Positions 2,233-58,950 of a DNA stretch of 64,000 bases are shown here, piece after piece (position 1 is the stretch's first letter; the number at the start of each line of letters is the position of its first letter). A program made the translations under genes and the position numbers. The notes beneath the pieces were generated by a model. The model was not told the DNA's origin. It made no database searches and saw only the letters and a list, made by a program, of their open reading frames with translations. The stretch is taken from assembly GCF_002854065.1 (NCBI RefSeq), contig NZ_CP024147.1, one strand, 5' to 3'. This DNA comes from Escherichia coli (GTDB lineage Bacteria > Pseudomonadota > Gammaproteobacteria > Enterobacterales > Enterobacteriaceae).

Positions 2233-3237
2233 ATGGGCGATAGTATTCTTTCTCAAGCTGAAATTGATGCGCTGTTGAATGGCGACAGCGAAGTCAAAGA
2301 CGAACCGACAGCCAGTGTTAGCGGCGAAAGTGACATTCGTCCGTACGATCCGAATACCCAACGACGGGTTGTGCGCGAACGTTTGCAGGCGCTGGAAATC
2401 ATTAATGAGCGCTTTGCCCGCCATTTTCGTATGGGGCTGTTCAACCTGCTGCGTCGTAGCCCGGATATAACCGTCGGGGCCATCCGCATTCAGCCGTACC
2501 ATGAATTTGCCCGCAACCTGCCGGTGCCGACCAACCTGAACCTTATCCATCTGAAACCGCTGCGCGGCACAGGGCTGGTGGTGTTCTCGCCGAGTCTGGT
2601 GTTTATCGCCGTGGATAACCTGTTTGGCGGCGATGGACGCTTCCCGACCAAAGTGGAAGGTCGCGAGTTTACCCATACCGAACAGCGCGTCATCAACCGC
2701 ATGTTGAAACTGGCGCTTGAAGGCTATAGCGACGCATGGAAGGCGATTAATCCGCTGGAAGTTGAGTACGTGCGTTCGGAAATGCAGGTGAAATTTACCA
2801 ATATCACCACCTCGCCGAACGACATTGTGGTTAACACGCCGTTCCATGTGGAGATTGGCAACCTGACCGGCGAATTTAATATCTGCCTGCCTTTCAGCAT
2901 GATCGAGCCGCTACGGGAATTGTTGGTTAACCCGCCGCTGGAAAACTCGCGTAATGAAGATCAGAACTGGCGCGATAACCTGGTGCGCCAGGTGCAGCAT
3001 TCACAGCTGGAGCTGGTCGCCAACTTTGCCGATATCTCGCTACGCCTGTCGCAGATTTTAAAACTGAAACCCGGTGACGTCCTGCCGATAGAAAAACCCG
3101 ATCGCATCATCGCCCATGTTGACGGCGTCCCGGTGCTGACCAGTCAGTACGGCACCCTCAACGGTCAGTATGCGTTACGGATAGAACATTTGATTAACCC
3201 GATTTTAAATTCTCTGAACGAGGAACAGCCCAAATGA
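2233..3237 (+). CDS. fliM: Flagellar motor switch protein FliM
   Basis: Internal ATG (MGDSILSQAEIDALLNG…) gives the 334 aa FliM; the ORF track start at 2131 is an upstream extension overlapping fliL. Confidence 0.9.
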   Translation: MGDSILSQAEIDALLNGDSEVKDEPTASVSGESDIRPYDPNTQRRVVRERLQALEIINERFARHFRMGLFNLLRRSPDITVGAIRIQPYHEFARNLPVPTNLNLIHLKPLRGTGLVVFSPSLVFIAVDNLFGGDGRFPTKVEGREFTHTEQRVINRMLKLALEGYSDAWKAINPLEVEYVRSEMQVKFTNITTSPNDIVVNTPFHVEIGNLTGEFNICLPFSMIEPLRELLVNPPLENSRNEDQNWRDNLVRQVQHSQLELVANFADISLRLSQILKLKPGDVLPIEKPDRIIAHVDGVPVLTSQYGTLNGQYALRIEHLINPILNSLNEEQPK

Positions 3238-3647
3238 GTGACATGAATAATCCGGCCGATGACAACAACGGCGCAATGGACGATCTGTGGGCTGAAGCGT
3301 TGAGCGAACAAAAATCAACCAGCAGCAAAAGCGCTGCCGACTCGGTGTTCCAGCAATTTGGCGGTGGTGATGTCAGCGGAACGTTGCAGGATATCGACCT
3401 GATAATGGATATTCCGGTCAAGCTGACCGTCGAGCTGGGCCGTACGCGGATGACCATCAAAGAGCTGTTGCGTCTGACGCAAGGGTCCGTCGTGGCGCTG
3501 GACGGTCTGGCGGGCGAACCACTGGATATTCTGATCAACGGTTATTTAATCGCCCAGGGCGAAGTGGTGGTCGTTGCCGATAAATATGGCGTGCGGATCA
3601 CCGATATCATTACTCCGTCTGAGCGAATGCGCCGCCTGAGCCGTTAG
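3234..3647 (+). CDS. fliN: Flagellar motor switch protein FliN
   Basis: 137 aa ORF, 4-bp overlap with fliM stop, recognised as FliN. Confidence 0.9.
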   Translation: MSDMNNPADDNNGAMDDLWAEALSEQKSTSSKSAADSVFQQFGGGDVSGTLQDIDLIMDIPVKLTVELGRTRMTIKELLRLTQGSVVALDGLAGEPLDILINGYLIAQGEVVVVADKYGVRITDIITPSERMRRLSR

Positions 3648-4015
3648 TGATGAATAACCACGCTACTGTGCAATCTTCCGCGCCGGTTTCTGCTGCGCCA
3701 CTGCTGCAGGTGAGCGGCGCACTCATCGCCATTATTGCCCTGATCCTCGCTGCTGCCTGGCTGGTAAAACGGTTGGGATTTGCCCCTAAGCGCACAGGCG
3801 TTAACGGTCTGAAAATTAGCGCCAGTGCTTCGCTGGGCGCGCGTGAACGGGTTGTGGTGGTCGATGTGGATGATGCACGGCTGGTGCTCGGCGTTACCGC
3901 AGGGCAAATCAATCTGCTGCATAAACTTCCCCCTTCTGCACCAACGGAAGAGATACCGCAGACCGATTTTCAGTCGGTCATGAAAAATTTGCTTAAGCGT
4001 AGCGGGAGATCCTGA
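3647..4015 (+). CDS. fliO: Flagellar export apparatus protein FliO
   Basis: 122 aa ORF with one transmembrane helix, in operon position between fliN and fliP. Confidence 0.85.
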
Positions 4016-7535: not shown

Positions 7536-10165
<2,630 letters not shown>

Positions 10166-15890: not shown

Positions 15891-16199
15891 CCTTCATTAA
15901 TGTGCGCGTGATCACACCAGCCGTTTAGCGCATCAATCATTGATACCCCCTATCTTTCCGCTCAACTCATAACATATTGATATGCATTTATAATTTTCAT
16001 GAATATTTATATTTAGAATTCATAATTATGAATTATATTAAATAGATTAGAAACATTTTGAAATCTTTTAAATATATTTGTTACATGTAGTCCTTAAAAT
16101 AAAATGAACTTCATAGAATAGTATCCAAATGTGCTTTTTTTTTGGATAACGGCACTTATTGATATATTCATGAAGATTATAATCACAAGGGAATACATA

Positions 16200-17864: not shown

Positions 17865-18716
17865 ATGACTGTTCAAACAAGTAAAAATCCGCAGGTCGAT
17901 ATTGCTGAAGATAATGCCTTCTTCCCTTCAGAATATTCGCTTAGCCAATATACCAGTCCTGTCTCTGATCTTGATGGCGTGGACTATCCAAAACCGTATC
18001 GCGGTAAACATAAAATTCTGGTGATCGCCGCGGACGAACGTTATTTGCCAACCGATAACGGAAAACTGTTCTCGACCGGTAACCATCCGATTGAAACGTT
18101 GCTGCCGTTGTATCATCTCCATGCTGCAGGTTTCGAATTCGAAGTGGCGACCATTTCCGGTCTGATGACCAAGTTTGAATACTGGGCTATGCCGCACAAA
18201 GATGAAAAAGTAATGCCATTCTTTGAGCAGCATAAATCGTTGTTCCGCAATCCGAAGAAACTCGCGGATGTTGTCGCCAGCCTCAACGCTGATAGCGAAT
18301 ATGCAGCAATCTTTGTTCCTGGTGGTCATGGCGCACTTATTGGTTTACCTGAAAGCCAGGACGTAGCTGCCGCTTTACAGTGGGCAATCAAAAATGACCG
18401 TTTTGTTATCTCCCTTTGCCACGGCCCGGCGGCTTTTCTGGCGCTTCGCCACGGCGATAACCCACTGAATGGTTATTCCATTTGCGCATTCCCAGACGCC
18501 GCAGACAAACAAACGCCAGAGATAGGCTATATGCCGGGTCATCTCACCTGGTACTTCGGCGAAGAGCTGAAGAAAATGGGCATGAACATCATTAATGACG
18601 ACATCACCGGGCGAGTACATAAGGACCGTAAAGTTCTCACCGGCGACAGTCCTTTCGCAGCGAATGCGTTGTGTAAACTGGCGGCGCAGGAAATGCTGGC
18701 AGCTTACGCGGGTTAA
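17865..18716 (+). CDS. hchA: Glyoxalase III / protein deglycase HchA (Hsp31)
   Basis: 283 aa ORF recognised as HchA (DJ-1/PfpI family). Confidence 0.9.
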   Translation: MTVQTSKNPQVDIAEDNAFFPSEYSLSQYTSPVSDLDGVDYPKPYRGKHKILVIAADERYLPTDNGKLFSTGNHPIETLLPLYHLHAAGFEFEVATISGLMTKFEYWAMPHKDEKVMPFFEQHKSLFRNPKKLADVVASLNADSEYAAIFVPGGHGALIGLPESQDVAAALQWAIKNDRFVISLCHGPAAFLALRHGDNPLNGYSICAFPDAADKQTPEIGYMPGHLTWYFGEELKKMGMNIINDDITGRVHKDRKVLTGDSPFAANALCKLAAQEMLAAYAG

Positions 18717-18822
18717 TCCCTGTTACGTTTGAATGTAAGCGCATAATCAATCGCAGCCGCGTTAGTACTCACGACGTGGCTGCGTTTTTCACGGTTAATT
18801 TATGGCGTACTGAAGCCCTATG

Positions 18823-20181
18823 TTAATTTCTTTGCGGTAACGTAATCCGGAACACATTATGCTTATTGAGATAGTGATACGTAGCACTTCCCCCATGCAA
18901 TTCGGCAATCGCTTTGACTAAAGAAAGGCCTAGTCCCTGACCTACGGAATGACGCGAATTATCTCCCCGCCAAAATCTACGGAAGAGTTTTTCAGGCTCA
19001 TTAATTTTCGTTCCAGGGCTGGCGATATCAATATTAAGAGATCCGTTGGTATCAAGAAAACTGGTTATATGAATACGCGATTTTTCTGGTGAATATCTAA
19101 TGGCATTAACAATAAGATTCGATAACATTCGTTGCAGTAAAATTTTATCCGCAAAGATTTGCTGATTGCACTCGACCTTAAAGCAAATCTCTTTCTCGTC
19201 TGAAAGATATTCAAGATAGTCCAACAAATTTTCGACTTCCTTATTGAGAGAAAGCGAGTCCAGTTTCACCAAAACATTGTTTTTATCTGCCCTGGCAAGA
19301 AACAGTATGTTCTCTGTTAACCGCGAAATATTTTCCAGCTCTTCAATGTTACCGGCAATTGTTTTTTGATATTCAGCGATACTTCTGGTTTGACTGAGCG
19401 TAACCTGATTCTGACCCAGTAATGCATTAATTGGCGTTCTAAGTTCATGAGCGAGATCGTCAGCAAACTGACTTAGACGCTCAAAATCTTTGACTAAAGC
19501 ATGATGCATTTTATTCAACGCCTGCCCAAGAGGTTTTAGTTCTCTCGGTAATGCGCTAACCTCAACAGGCTCTCGGCTATCGTTATAATTCAGCGCTTCC
19601 GTTACACCAATCAACTTTTTGATCTCTCGTAACCCCGTTTGGATTAACAGCGGACTTAATACTGAGCACAGTATAATGGCGACAATGCAAATTATAATGC
19701 TATTGATTTTATACTGTTCAAGCATGTTATGTCTGGCTGAAGCCAATTTAGCCACAGTAACCGTTAATGATGGCGAAACTTCATCAATATTAATTCGTAA
19801 AGCATCTATCTCTGTATCATTAATAATGCTTCTGTAAATACCAGCTGCACTGATTGTCTCACTAGCAGGTATGTTATTTAACATGCCATCACTGACATTT
19901 GTCCGGTTAACAATTTTATTGATGCTATCACCATGAATGATCAAGATATCCTGACTAACATCCATCATCCGGTTAAAGTATACAGGTAACGTATCTGGAT
20001 TTACCCCATCAATTAACAACTGCTTGATCTGCGCTGTCCGGTTAATGAGTGTTGTATCATCGCGCCATTTCAACTCACTTGCCAGGCCATTATAGAGAGT
20101 CCAGACAATTCCGGCGCCAGCAACAGACAGCAGCAATATAAAAAGCAAGGTTAAACGGACGGTTATAGATAATCTTTTCAT
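18823..20181 (-). CDS. hprS: Two-component sensor histidine kinase HprS (YedV)
   Basis: 452 aa ORF with two transmembrane segments, HAMP, HisKA (HELRTP) and HATPase domains. Confidence 0.9.
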   Translation of the reverse strand: MKRLSITVRLTLLFILLLSVAGAGIVWTLYNGLASELKWRDDTTLINRTAQIKQLLIDGVNPDTLPVYFNRMMDVSQDILIIHGDSINKIVNRTNVSDGMLNNIPASETISAAGIYRSIINDTEIDALRINIDEVSPSLTVTVAKLASARHNMLEQYKINSIIICIVAIILCSVLSPLLIQTGLREIKKLIGVTEALNYNDSREPVEVSALPRELKPLGQALNKMHHALVKDFERLSQFADDLAHELRTPINALLGQNQVTLSQTRSIAEYQKTIAGNIEELENISRLTENILFLARADKNNVLVKLDSLSLNKEVENLLDYLEYLSDEKEICFKVECNQQIFADKILLQRMLSNLIVNAIRYSPEKSRIHITSFLDTNGSLNIDIASPGTKINEPEKLFRRFWRGDNSRHSVGQGLGLSLVKAIAELHGGSATYHYLNKHNVFRITLPQRN

Positions 20182-20852
20182 TATTTTTTTACCGCTACGA
20201 ATGAATAGCCCATCCCCCGGATTGTAGCGATTAGCTTCTCAGGAAAAGGATCATCAACTTTTGCGCGGAGCCTGCGAATGGCAACATCCACCGTATTGGT
20301 ATCACTATCAAAGTTGATTCCCCAAATTTCACTCGCAATAACCGTTCTGGGTATAATTTCGCCAGCTCTGGAGGCCAGTAGCCAAAGTAACTGAAACTCC
20401 TTGCGCGTCAGTGTAATACTGATATTGTCCCTGCTCACACTTTGACTAACAGAGTCCATTCTTAAGCCGCTGATTTCTAATGTTGAATTCAAAGCGTGAT
20501 GTTGCCTTAATTGTGCCCGAACCCTTGCCAGCAACTCAGAAAATGAAAAAGGTTTTACCAGATAATCATTTGCTCCACTGTCCAGCCCTCTGACTCTGTC
20601 ATCGACAGAATCCCTTGCAGTAAGGCAAATAACAGGGGTTTGCTTTGCCGTTCTTAACGTTTGTAAGATCTGCCAGCCATCCATACCCGGAAGCATAATA
20701 TCCAGAATGATCAATGCATAATCATCCTTCAGCGCAAGATAAAGCCCATCTCTGCCATCAGAAACGGCATCAATGACATAACCCGCTTCGGAAAGCCCCT
20801 GCGTTACCCACTCCTGGGTCCTTTGATTATCTTCAATAAGTAAAATCTTCAT
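20181..20852 (-). CDS. hprR: OmpR-family response regulator HprR (YedW)
   Basis: 223 aa from internal ATG (MKILLIEDN…); receiver plus winged-helix domains; the ORF track start at 20963 is an extension. Confidence 0.9.
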   Translation of the reverse strand: MKILLIEDNQRTQEWVTQGLSEAGYVIDAVSDGRDGLYLALKDDYALIILDIMLPGMDGWQILQTLRTAKQTPVICLTARDSVDDRVRGLDSGANDYLVKPFSFSELLARVRAQLRQHHALNSTLEISGLRMDSVSQSVSRDNISITLTRKEFQLLWLLASRAGEIIPRTVIASEIWGINFDSDTNTVDVAIRRLRAKVDDPFPEKLIATIRGMGYSFVAVKK

Positions 20853-20897
20853 GAAAATAATATGCCATAAATTATATGTTATAGAAACAGCCTGGTT

Positions 20898-20915
20898 CAT
20901 TACAAAATTGTAATG
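20898..20915 (+). promoter_or_regulatory. Putative HprR/CusR-type box in the hprR-hiuH divergent region
   Basis: Inverted repeat CATTACAAAATTGTAATG (arms CATTAC/GTAATG) between the divergent hprR and hiuH genes. Confidence 0.5.
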
Positions 20916-20984
20916 CTGCTGTAAGGTTACCCTGGACGCTTTTTCGCTATCCTCAAAACTCATTCACATGACAAGGATATAAAC

Positions 20985-21398
20985 ATGTTAAAGCGTTATT
21001 TAGTACTCTCGGTAGCAACGGCAGCATTTTCATTACCTTCTTTGGTTAATGCCGCACAACAAAACATTCTTAGCGTGCACATTTTGAACCAGCAAACAGG
21101 AAAACCCGCTGCTGACGTGACAGTCACTCTTGAAAAGAAGGCGGATAACGGCTGGTTACAACTTAATACCGCCAAAACAGATAAGGATGGACGAATTAAG
21201 GCACTGTGGCCCGAGCAAACTGCAACTACGGGCGATTACCGTGTCGTATTTAAAACCGGGGACTATTTCAAGAAACAAAATCTTGAAAGTTTCTTCCCTG
21301 AGATCCCCGTTGAATTTCATATTAATAAAGTGAACGAGCATTATCATGTGCCTTTATTACTTAGCCAATATGGGTATTCAACCTATCGTGGCAGTTAA
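20985..21398 (+). CDS. hiuH: 5-hydroxyisourate hydrolase HiuH (YedX, transthyretin-like)
   Basis: 137 aa ORF with signal peptide and the C-terminal YRGS motif. Confidence 0.9.
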
Positions 21399-21500
21399 TG
21401 CATAAATATGTAAAAGCAGATCTCTGCTACTGTTAGGGAGGACACTCCCTGACAGATTAACAGTAAACGGCTCTTGCTGGCTAACGACAAAAAAGTGTGA

Positions 21501-22511
<1,011 letters not shown>

Positions 22512-23147
22512 ATGCGTCTGACAGCAAAACAGGTGACATGGCTGAAAGTTTGCCTGCATCTTGCCGGATTGTTGCCGTTTCTCTGGCTGGTCTGGGCGAT
22601 CAATCACGGTGGACTGGGTGCCGATCCGGTGAAAGATATTCAGCATTTTACCGGTCGCACTGCACTGAAATTTTTGCTGGCGACCTTGTTAATCACACCT
22701 CTGGCACGCTACGCAAAACAGCCGTTATTGATACGCACTCGCCGCCTGTTAGGCTTATGGTGCTTTGCCTGGGCGACACTGCATTTAACCAGTTACGCAT
22801 TGCTGGAGCTGGGCGTGAATAATCTGGCGTTATTAGGCAAGGAGTTAATTACCCGGCCTTATTTAACGTTAGGAATTATCAGCTGGGTTATTTTGCTTGC
22901 TTTAGCGTTTACTTCAACCCAGGCGATGCAGCGAAAACTCGGCAAGCACTGGCAACAGTTGCATAATTTCGTCTATCTTGTCGCGATCCTGGCCCCAATA
23001 CATTATCTGTGGTCGGTGAAGATTATTTCACCGCAGCCGCTCATCTACGCTGGGCTGGCTGTACTGCTTTTAGCCTTACGGTATAAGAAGTTGCGTTCCC
23101 TTTTTAACCGGTTACGCAAGCAGGTTCACAACAAATTATCTGTATAA
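22512..23147 (+). CDS. msrQ: Haem-binding membrane subunit MsrQ (YedZ)
   Basis: 211 aa polytopic membrane ORF immediately after msrP. Confidence 0.9.
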
Positions 23148-23180
23148 CTTCATATTGCCGACAAAGTACGCGTTATCCCT

Positions 23181-23214
23181 GCCGGATGTGGCGCGAGCGC
23201 CCTATCCGGCCTAC
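23181..23214. repeat. REP (repetitive extragenic palindromic) element
   Basis: GCCGGATGTGGCGCGAGCGCCCTATCCGGCCTAC matches the REP consensus; intergenic between msrQ and zinT. Confidence 0.6.
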
Positions 23215-23348
23215 GCAGATCACATCAGGTTATGTTTCGTTTGTCATCAACCTCAAATTATCAACATAATTCATTTTATTTCAATAAGATAGATAAGTAC
23301 ACCTGAGAAAACTATGCTCTCATCTCCTAAGAGTTGTTGCATTTTGTC

Positions 23349-23370
23349 ATATGTTACAATATAACATTAC
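23349..23370 (+). promoter_or_regulatory. Putative Zur box in the zinT promoter
   Basis: Near-palindrome ATGTTACAATATAACAT (TGTTA…TAACA arms) immediately upstream of zinT. Confidence 0.5.
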
Positions 23371-23403
23371 ACATCATATACAATGACTCTGGAGGAAACT
23401 GTT

Positions 23404-24054
23404 TTGGCGATTCGTCTTCACAAACTGGCTGTTGCTTTAGGTGTCTTTATTGTTAGCGTTCCTGCCTTTTCGCATGGTCATCACTCACACGGCAAACCCT
23501 TAACAGAGGTCGAACAAAAAGCTGCTAATGGTGTTTTTGATGATGCCAATGTACAAAACCGAACGCTCAGTGACTGGGATGGAGTCTGGCAATCCGTTTA
23601 TCCTTTACTGCAAAGTGGCAAACTTGACCCCGTCTTTCAGAAGAAAGCGGATGCAGATAAAACTAAAACATTTGCTGAAATTAAAGATTATTATCACAAA
23701 GGTTATGCAACAGATATCGAGATGATTGGCATTGAGGACGGCATTGTTGAATTCCATAGAAATAATGAAACAACATCCTGTAAATATGATTACGATGGAT
23801 ACAAAATACTCACCTATAAATCAGACAAGAAAGGCGTTCGTTACTTATTCGAATGTAAAGATCCTGAAAGCAAAGCCCCTAAATATATACAATTTAGCGA
23901 TCATATAATTGCACCACGAAAATCATCTCATTTTCACATTTTTATGGGTAATGATTCACAGCAATCTTTATTAAATGAAATGGAAAACTGGCCAACGTAT
24001 TATCCATATCAGTTGAGTAGCGAAGAAGTGGTCGAGGAAATGATGTCTCATTGA
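23404..24054 (+). CDS. zinT: Periplasmic zinc/cadmium-binding protein ZinT (YodA)
   Basis: Likely TTG start at 23404, preceded by GGAGG 8 nt upstream, giving a 216 aa product starting with signal peptide (M)[22 protein letters not shown] and the His-rich HGHHSHG; the ATG at 23383 is the alternative. Confidence 0.8.
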
Positions 24055-51715: not shown

Positions 51716-51819
51716 CTAATTTCGATAGGTTCTCAGATGAGAATGATGACGGTGATACACAGATAAGAATCAATGAGCAATGAGGGTTGCCGGGCAACCC
51801 TCATTGAATAAAACAGGAA

Positions 51820-54159: not shown

Positions 54160-55332
54160 TCAGGCCTTATGGTGGAAATAATCACTCAGGCGGGAAAACA
54201 TGCCGCCTTCCCCGACAGATTCCAGGGTAACCAGCGGCCAGTGCGCCACCTGTTTATCACGGTCGTAAAGTTCAATTTCCCCTACCCGCTGATGGGCGCT
54301 AATTGGCGCGGTGAGCTCTTTACCATCAAGGGTATATTTGGCTTTGATATGTGGAATTTCGGCTTTCGGTAGCACCATCCAGAACTCTTGTTCCGTTCCC
54401 AGGTCGATATTTTCTTTATCGCCATACCAGATGCGTTCCGTTCCGACCTTTTTCCCACGGTGCAAAATTTGCACCGTAGTAAAGTTTTGTTGCCCCCAAC
54501 GCAGTAATTTTCTTGCCTCTTCCTCACGACCTTTTGCACTGTCAGCCCCCATTACCACTGCAATGAGACGACGCTGCCCATCTACAGCCGAAGCAATGAG
54601 ATTAAACCCGGCACCAGAAGTATGACCCGTTTTCAGGCCGTCAACATTCATGGTTTTATCCCACAACAACCCGTTACGGTTTTGCTGGGTGATACCGTTC
54701 CAGGTGAGACTTTTCTCACTGTACATATGATAAAACTCGGGCTCGCCGTGGATGATAGCGCGAGAAAGCACAGCTAAATCATAAGCCGAGCTATGCTGGC
54801 CAGGTGCATCCAGACCATGCACTGTTTCAAAATGCGTATCCTTGAGATGCAGCTTCTCGGCATAGTTGTTCATCATTTCAACAAACTGCCGTTGCCCACC
54901 GGCAATATAGTCAGCCAGAGCAACACAAGCGTCATTTCCGGAATCCACAATTAAACCACGGCTTAAATCACGTACCGATACGCGATCGCCCTCTTTCAAA
55001 AACATCAGTGAAGAACCGACAAACACCGGATTATCTTTCGCCCACGCATCGCGCCCCACGGTGACAATATCGTCTGGCGTAATGCGATGACTATCGATAG
55101 CGCGATCCACGACATAACCCGTCATCAGCTTTGTCAGGCTGGCGGGATTGCGCTGTTGATGCTCATTACCCGCGGTGAGGATCTGTCCGGTGGTGTAATC
55201 CATCAGTACCCAGGACCCGGCTTGAATCTGTGGAGGCTGAGGTGAAAAAGGAATGTTTTCCGCCGCAAAACCAGACGATAAGTTAAAAACGAACAAAGAA
55301 GCAGCAATAATAAGACGGCGTTTCAACAGCAA
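54160..55332 (-). CDS. dacD: D-alanyl-D-alanine carboxypeptidase DacD (PBP6b)
   Basis: 390 aa with signal peptide and S11 peptidase motifs (SxxK: ASLTK; SGN). Confidence 0.9.
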   Translation of the reverse strand: MLLKRRLIIAASLFVFNLSSGFAAENIPFSPQPPQIQAGSWVLMDYTTGQILTAGNEHQQRNPASLTKLMTGYVVDRAIDSHRITPDDIVTVGRDAWAKDNPVFVGSSLMFLKEGDRVSVRDLSRGLIVDSGNDACVALADYIAGGQRQFVEMMNNYAEKLHLKDTHFETVHGLDAPGQHSSAYDLAVLSRAIIHGEPEFYHMYSEKSLTWNGITQQNRNGLLWDKTMNVDGLKTGHTSGAGFNLIASAVDGQRRLIAVVMGADSAKGREEEARKLLRWGQQNFTTVQILHRGKKVGTERIWYGDKENIDLGTEQEFWMVLPKAEIPHIKAKYTLDGKELTAPISAHQRVGEIELYDRDKQVAHWPLVTLESVGEGGMFSRLSDYFHHKA

Positions 55333-58365: not shown

Positions 58366-58950
58366 TTACTCCGGATATTTAAAAATTACGTAGGTATGCG
58401 ACGGGCAGAGTTTGTTAAGCACACACTCGACAACGGTGTCGCCCCAGATACGCAGTGCGGAATCACAGGGATCGCCACATGTCATCCAGGTGGTGTTGGT
58501 GGTGGTTGGCATGTTGACATGCCAGTAATACCGCCATTCCGGCGCATTCACCGCGTCAGTACAGGCCGATGAGCAGGTGAACGTGCTTTTGTCGTATCGC
58601 GTGATGGTGGCATCTGGTCTGCCCAGGGCAGCAAGCTGTGCAAGATAAAAATCCTCGTTGATGCCGCCCGCCAGGTTAACCTTCGCATCCAGCCGTTGCT
58701 GACGCTGGCGAAGGGTCTGCGTTCCCGCCGGAATACATTCATCCGGCAGACCGCACAGACGCTCCCAGCGGTTTATCAGTTCAGTGGTGGTGCGCGGATC
58801 CAGCTCCCGCATCAGGGCATCCGCACGCTGATGAACACGGGTTAATGACGGTGCCGCACCGGCAATCGCCGGATCGCTGGCTGACCACGCCGGACCGGGC
58901 GGCAACAGTGCCGATAACAGGCGGATGTAATCATCGTTTGTCACGTCCAT
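58366..58950 (-). CDS. Phage tail protein, YmfQ / Mu gp48-like (DUF2313)
   Basis: 194 aa ([22 protein letters not shown]…), positioned between the baseplate J gene and the fibre gene. Confidence 0.6.

Follow-up and report, generated by a model that had tools for sequence, protein, structure and literature searches.

The divergently transcribed genes hprR and hiuH of Escherichia coli are separated by a short spacer with a palindrome, and this locus raises the question which regulators use the palindrome, which genes they control through it and how much of the surrounding DNA belongs to the functional operator. The analysis covered a 64-kb stretch of DNA, referred to here as the window, and all positions are those of the window. 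The 132-bp spacer (20853-20984), which is bounded by hprR at 20852 and by the hiuH ATG at 20985, houses the 18-mer CATTACAAAATTGTAATG, found by sequence search of the window at 20898-20915. The genes and elements discussed here are the following:

18823-20181, minus strand: hprS (yedV), sensor kinase partner; heavy-metal sensor kinase subfamily TIGR01386, RefSeq name HprS
20181-20852, minus strand: hprR (yedW), OmpR-family response regulator; NCBIfam equivalog NF008567, RefSeq
20898-20915: HprR/CusR box, palindrome CATTACAA-AA-TTGTAATG; identical to the published YedW/HprR/CusR box and at the published position
20899-20904 and 20909-20914: half-sites of the box, ATTACA and TGTAAT
20920-20925, plus strand: candidate third half-site TGTAAG, repeating the right arm in the same orientation 11 bp further downstream
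20948-20953, plus strand: candidate hiuH -10 hexamer TATCCT, 32 nt after the box
20985-21398, plus strand: hiuH, promoter-proximal gene of the regulated operon; NCBIfam equivalog NF011610, RefSeq
21507-22511, plus strand: msrP, periplasmic methionine sulfoxide reductase catalytic subunit; NCBIfam NF003767
22512-23147, plus strand: msrQ, haem-binding membrane subunit; NCBIfam NF003831

The box in the hprR-hiuH spacer

The identity of the neighbouring genes is well founded: hprR, hiuH, msrP and msrQ exceed the cut-offs of their NCBIfam equivalog models, hprS exceeds that of its subfamily model, and RefSeq names all five genes alike. HprR scores 483 bits against NF008567 (cut-off 353, aligned over 1-223) and, with 381.8 bits against TIGR01387 (cut-off 279.2), it is also a member of the heavy-metal response-regulator subfamily. 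It is 52% identical to K-12 CusR, and the recognition helix TNxxDVAxxRLRxK is common to both proteins. A 260-aa open reading frame on the minus strand (20181-20963), starting from an upstream ATG, spans the whole spacer including the box; its extension was rejected as non-coding because the HprR model aligns over 1-223 from the MKILLIED start and RefSeq gives 223 aa. A 1401-bp query from this part of the E. coli chromosome (20100-21500) matches 5417 of 5426 complete E. coli genomes and is 100% identical to strain 100416.

The initial annotation had described a perfect palindrome with 6-bp arms. Its position and the limits of the spacer were confirmed by sequence search, whereas the inverted arms proved to be perfect over 8 bp, with a centre of 2 nt. 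Within the window the 18-mer is single-copy at up to three mismatches, the other match being its own reverse strand, with 0.07 matches expected. Perfect palindromes with 8-bp arms and spacers of 0-6 nt gave 26 listings, about 17 distinct sites, in the window, compared with about 8 in Markov-simulated sequence. Palindromy by itself is therefore weak evidence and was dropped as a statistical argument, and the weight for the box comes from its exact match, in both sequence and position, to an operator already described, from its conservation and from its recurrence beside homologous regulators. Further perfect palindromes with arms of at least 8 bp are present at 16017-16034, 51782-51802, 54457-54477, 7718-7735 and 58507-58524, e.g., AATTCATAATTATGAATT and ACGGTGCAAAATTTGCACCGT.

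The box is already known as the HprR/CusR operator and is not new. Two papers print the exact 18-mer as YedW/HprR and CusR box, both citing Urano et al. (2015); one of the two, Vergnes et al. (2022), terms it "the CusR and HprR boxes". The published position is -87 to -70 from the hiuH ATG, in exact agreement with the window (20985-87 = 20898; 20985-70 = 20915). The initial annotation had recognised an HprR/CusR-type element and judged it to be expected rather than novel, and both statements are borne out by the printed sequence and its place.

Within Escherichia the box is strongly conserved. Seven spacers were aligned, among them those of a cryptic Escherichia species and of E. albertii; 27 of the 132 columns vary, none of them among the 18 columns of the box, and CTGTAAGGT is invariant. 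Of 5417 E. coli records, 5335 agree in every base of the 32-nt segment that holds the box and the third half-site; in the adjoining 32 nt, full identity is seen in 1293 of 5415, a contrast that is mostly due to one common SNP. EPEC O127:H6 carries A in place of G20915, the outermost base of the box, and T in place of G20918 in the spacer before the third half-site, while TGTAAG is intact; since only the outermost base of the box is altered, the conserved core is the 16-mer ATTACAAAATTGTAAT. In E. coli NT1W25 (L124, about 2530-3960) an IS3-family element is inserted at the equivalent of window position ~20939, i.e., between the box with its third half-site and the candidate hiuH -10, which would part the operator from the core promoter. 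A cus-type half-site, ATGACAA, is found at 20968-20974 just before the hiuH Shine-Dalgarno region; it is invariant in the Escherichia alignment and may be a coincidence or reflect conservation of the ribosome-binding region.

Recurrence of the 18-mer and proposed layout of the hiuH promoter

The exact 18-mer was scanned for in one genome per species and found in at least 120 stretches, compared with a rough prior chance estimate of ~30; the matches are well above this estimate and their contexts are non-random. Class A comprises at least 22 loci, namely 20 with CusR-like regulators that are 67-72% identical to E. coli CusR and two Escherichia hprR-hiuH loci. The box is located 54-262 bp upstream of the regulator gene in at least about 20 other proteobacterial species and faces genes for a multicopper oxidase, a CusC-like outer-membrane (OEP-family) protein, DUF326 or YHS proteins. 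Among the matches listed, the same operator is thus present beside CusR-type regulators in other genomes. Class B encompasses at least nine loci in Verrucomicrobia and spirochaetes with regulators that are 47-54% identical; here the box follows the regulator-kinase pair and is neighboured by genes for a DegP/HtrA-like protease or outer-membrane-like proteins. Two further alphaproteobacterial loci, e.g., L045, share the class B gene set, with the box beside the protease gene upstream of the regulator. Class C contains at least 35 Firmicutes loci (L006-L117) with BceRS/BceAB-like modules and regulators that are 28-36% identical. In this class the box is positioned at the stop codon of a gene for a small histidine kinase, and 70-76 bp separate it from a downstream gene for an ABC ATPase with an FtsX-type permease (e.g., L063 2145-2162); it is accompanied by a further TGTAAT 10 bp on and by TAnAAT 41 nt after the box. 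Class C fits the published GraR/BceR palindromes.

In spirochaete and alphaproteobacterial loci (L023 6924, L045 4500, L085 1323) the 18-mer lies directly upstream of genes for DegP/HtrA-like periplasmic proteases, adjoining a CusR-like two-component pair with 47-49% identity; these loci constitute another link of the box to periplasmic protein quality control. Two exact boxes 245-900 bp apart were observed in L003 (10624/10869), L083 (4853/5696) and L088 (3033/3930), which are Verrucomicrobia and Methylotenera-type; the paired boxes surround small genes of unknown function.

The flanks of the box on the hiuH side show a further regularity. The right arm and the third half-site form the direct repeat TGTAAT-gctgc-TGTAAG (20909-20925), and the cusC promoter has the same arrangement with TGTCAT-ttttc-TGTCAC. 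Among the matches listed, 90 of the 246 outward flanks have GT[AC]A at offset 4-5 from the box, compared with 0-5 flanks at nearly all other offsets. A simple sigma-70 scan of 20780-21060 found no consensus promoter, in keeping with dependence on an activator. The candidate hiuH -10 was therefore placed by comparison with related promoters: nAnnnT occurs exactly 32 nt after the box in 28 of 33 non-redundant related flanks in the 11-bp register (among the matches listed), and cusC has TAAAGT at the same offset. With TATCCT as -10, the hiuH transcription start is predicted at about 20959-20961, so that the box would be centred near -53.5, with the third half-site between about -40 and -35.

The layout of palindrome, third half-site and -10 is common to E. 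coli hiuH and cusC and to about 30 CopR/CusR-type promoters elsewhere, with a 10-bp variant in BceR-like Firmicutes promoters. In other proteobacteria (class A) a mirrored fourth half-site is often added, giving ~40 bp with four half-sites and -10 elements equidistant on both sides; E. coli retains the third half-site and the -10 layout only on the structural-gene side. The functional operator may quite possibly exceed the published 18-mer and consist of the inverted repeat together with the direct-repeat TGTAAG over the -35 region, 22 nt from the -10, an extension that we put forward tentatively. If it holds, activation would require a third or fourth regulator protomer, and the "palindromic" boxes of this clade would be reconciled with the head-to-tail binding typical of the OmpR family. 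Secondary sites have been described in the case of BceR-like regulators; in the HprR/CusR literature searched, none were found for HprR or CusR. The composite layout with three half-sites would be a modest addition to the known site.

On the hprR side, both a fourth half-site and a symmetric -10 as in other proteobacteria were sought and are absent in E. coli. Candidates for the hprR -10 are TATAAT at 20876-20871 (TATGAT in K-12, TATGAC in E. albertii), TAACAT at 20881-20876 and CATATT at 20864-20859; they are not kept in E. albertii, and the sequence gives no ranking among them and no promoter placement. The window carries T at 20873, where K-12, O157:H7, ST131, MRSN346355, EPEC, Escherichia sp. 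MOD1-EC7003 and E. albertii carry C, and this T turns the minus-strand TATGAT into a perfect TATAAT upstream of hprR. It could be a promoter-strength variant of hprR.

Regulation through the shared operator

Almost certainly, the 18-bp palindrome is a shared operator of the paralogous regulators HprR and CusR, either of which activates the rightward hiuH-msrPQ operon. HprS senses HOCl or other reactive chlorine species, and H2O2 less well, and CusS senses copper or silver; each kinase would phosphorylate its own regulator, which would then bind the box and switch on hiuH-msrPQ, with products that act in urate-product hydrolysis and in periplasmic methionine-sulfoxide repair. A protomer on the third half-site TGTAAG could replace the poor -35 element, in analogy to PhoB-type activation. 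The published data agree with the main parts of this scheme. It was reported that hiuH-msrPQ is a tricistronic operon, msrP being co-transcribed with hiuH by RT-PCR, and that HOCl induces it in a YedVW (HprSR)-dependent manner, in line with the initial annotation, which had found the box consistent with HprSR control of hiuH-msrPQ as a redox/HOCl-stress module. In O157:H7, where the box is identical according to the Escherichia spacer alignment, HprR was found on the hiuH promoter by ChIP-qPCR and EMSA. By gSELEX, HprR was shown to bind the hprRS/hiuH spacer with lower affinity than the cusRS/cusCFBA spacer, its only strong peak falling on the cus spacer and a minor peak on the hprRS/hiuH spacer, and in that study HprR and CusR were said to recognise the same sequence. 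Induction of msrP by copper was reported to depend on CusSR. Through the box, the sensing of chlorine/oxidative stress and of copper is tied in E. coli to protein repair in the periplasm, and the box represents a textbook-style case of one operator serving two paralogous two-component systems. What the comparison adds is the reuse of the 18-mer across phyla and a fixed layout of palindrome, third half-site and -10, which makes a testable prediction of the contact between regulator and promoter.

The alternatives differ in the regulator, in the direction of control and in the way the protein would sit on the DNA. It is very unlikely that the box is chiefly a copper (CusR) operator at which HprR binding is secondary cross-talk. 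The relative peak heights in gSELEX would be in line with it, as would the CusSR dependence of msrP induction by copper and the presence of the identical 18-mer beside copper genes and CusR-like regulators in many species. However, msrP is induced ~60-fold by HOCl and copper on top adds nothing, the box adjoins hprR itself, and a purely CusR-dedicated site is improbable because of the HOCl/HprSR dependence and the HprR ChIP result, to which the EMSA adds. The leftward hprRS genes are very probably activated through the box as well, i.e., autoregulated. Repression of hprRS by overlap of the box with the hprR promoter, a negative autoregulation, is suggested by the RefSeq label "dual regulator" for K-12 HprR and by the centre of the box, which, depending on which -10 candidate is the true one, would fall at about -37 to -43 relative to the hprR promoter. 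Since HOCl raises the yedW and yedV transcripts of the wild type ~20-fold, such repression is unlikely, and published accounts describe self-upregulation of hprRS. That the palindrome arose by chance, or forms an RNA hairpin or terminator, and takes no part in regulation can practically be dismissed: the window does contain a fair number of perfect palindromes with 8-bp arms, but the exact match to a published operator, its conservation and the published binding and expression data refute this reading. The hairpin or terminator version was ruled out by a terminator scan with no terminator-like site at the box, which is AT-rich and has no T-run, by a fold energy that is not unusual (z = -1.57) and by an Rfam search of 18000-24000 with no family match.

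A further alternative concerns the geometry and would refine the shared-operator explanation, not replace it. Here the unit that activates hiuH would be a PhoB/OmpR-like head-to-tail pair on TGTAAT-N5-TGTAAG and not a symmetric dimer on the palindrome, and a second dimer or the divergent hprR promoter would make use of the left arm. The 11-bp direct-repeat register, which is kept at hiuH, cusC and most related promoters, and the class A loci with their mirrored fourth half-site argue for this geometry. The solved DNA complexes of the OmpR-family proteins PmrA/BasR, KdpE and PhoP sit on direct repeats, which also counts in its favour. A structure search found no solved HprR- or CusR-DNA complex, only the DNA-binding domain of PcoR. 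The head-to-tail arrangement nevertheless is rather doubtful, with the published boxes of CusR, HprR and Pseudomonas CusR/CopR/CzcR being described as palindromes and a 4-bp mutation in the Pseudomonas palindrome abolishing activation of both divergent promoters (PMC11195947).

Comparison with known systems

Among the closest known systems is the CusR box of the cusRS/cusCFBA spacer in E. coli, for which PMC11195947 quotes the sequence AAAATGACAAnnTTGTCATTTT from Yamamoto and Ishihama (2005). In K-12 the cus box reads AAAATGACAATTTTGTCATTTT, and its opposite strand shares the core ATnACAA-AA-TTGTnAT with the hiuH box. Both are located in a divergent spacer between regulator and target genes, both are reported to be bound by CusR and HprR, and, on the side of the structural genes, cusC and hiuH are alike in that a third half-site follows 11 bp further on and a -10-like hexamer follows the box at 32 nt. 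The two boxes differ in one base per half-site (T in hiuH, G in cusC) and in their outer bases; the arms of the cus palindrome extend to 10 bp, and the reported affinity of HprR is higher for the cus spacer than for the hprRS/hiuH spacer. In Pseudomonas paraeruginosa the palindrome of CusR/CopR/CzcR, printed as ATTCATnnATGTAAT, is located in the pcoA2-cusR spacer (PMC11195947). Similar to the hiuH box it ends in TGTAAT and is common to several paralogous response regulators, and it drives divergent operons with an outcome that differs by regulator. Unlike in the hiuH box, its central bases differ and its targets are copper resistance genes and not a methionine-sulfoxide repair operon.

The operators of the GraR/BceR type in Firmicutes are described as AAGTGACA-N4-TGTCATTT and ACAAATTTGT (PMC3128592). 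These OmpR-family regulators use inverted repeats of the type TGACA/TTACA-N4-TGTCA/TGTAA at the end of a kinase gene and upstream of an ABC transporter, and the exact E. coli 18-mer is found in at least 35 loci of this type. In contrast to HprR, with which they share only 28-36% identity, GraR/BceR-type regulators possess a different recognition helix, and their promoters have the third half-site at 10 bp instead of 11 and the -10 at offset 41 instead of 32. The pho box of PhoB consists of direct repeats with 11-bp periodicity that replace the -35 element, and it has no inverted arm. The TGTAAT-N5-TGTAAG register of the hiuH promoter and its promoter-proximal repeat over the -35 region would, by analogy, resemble this arrangement.
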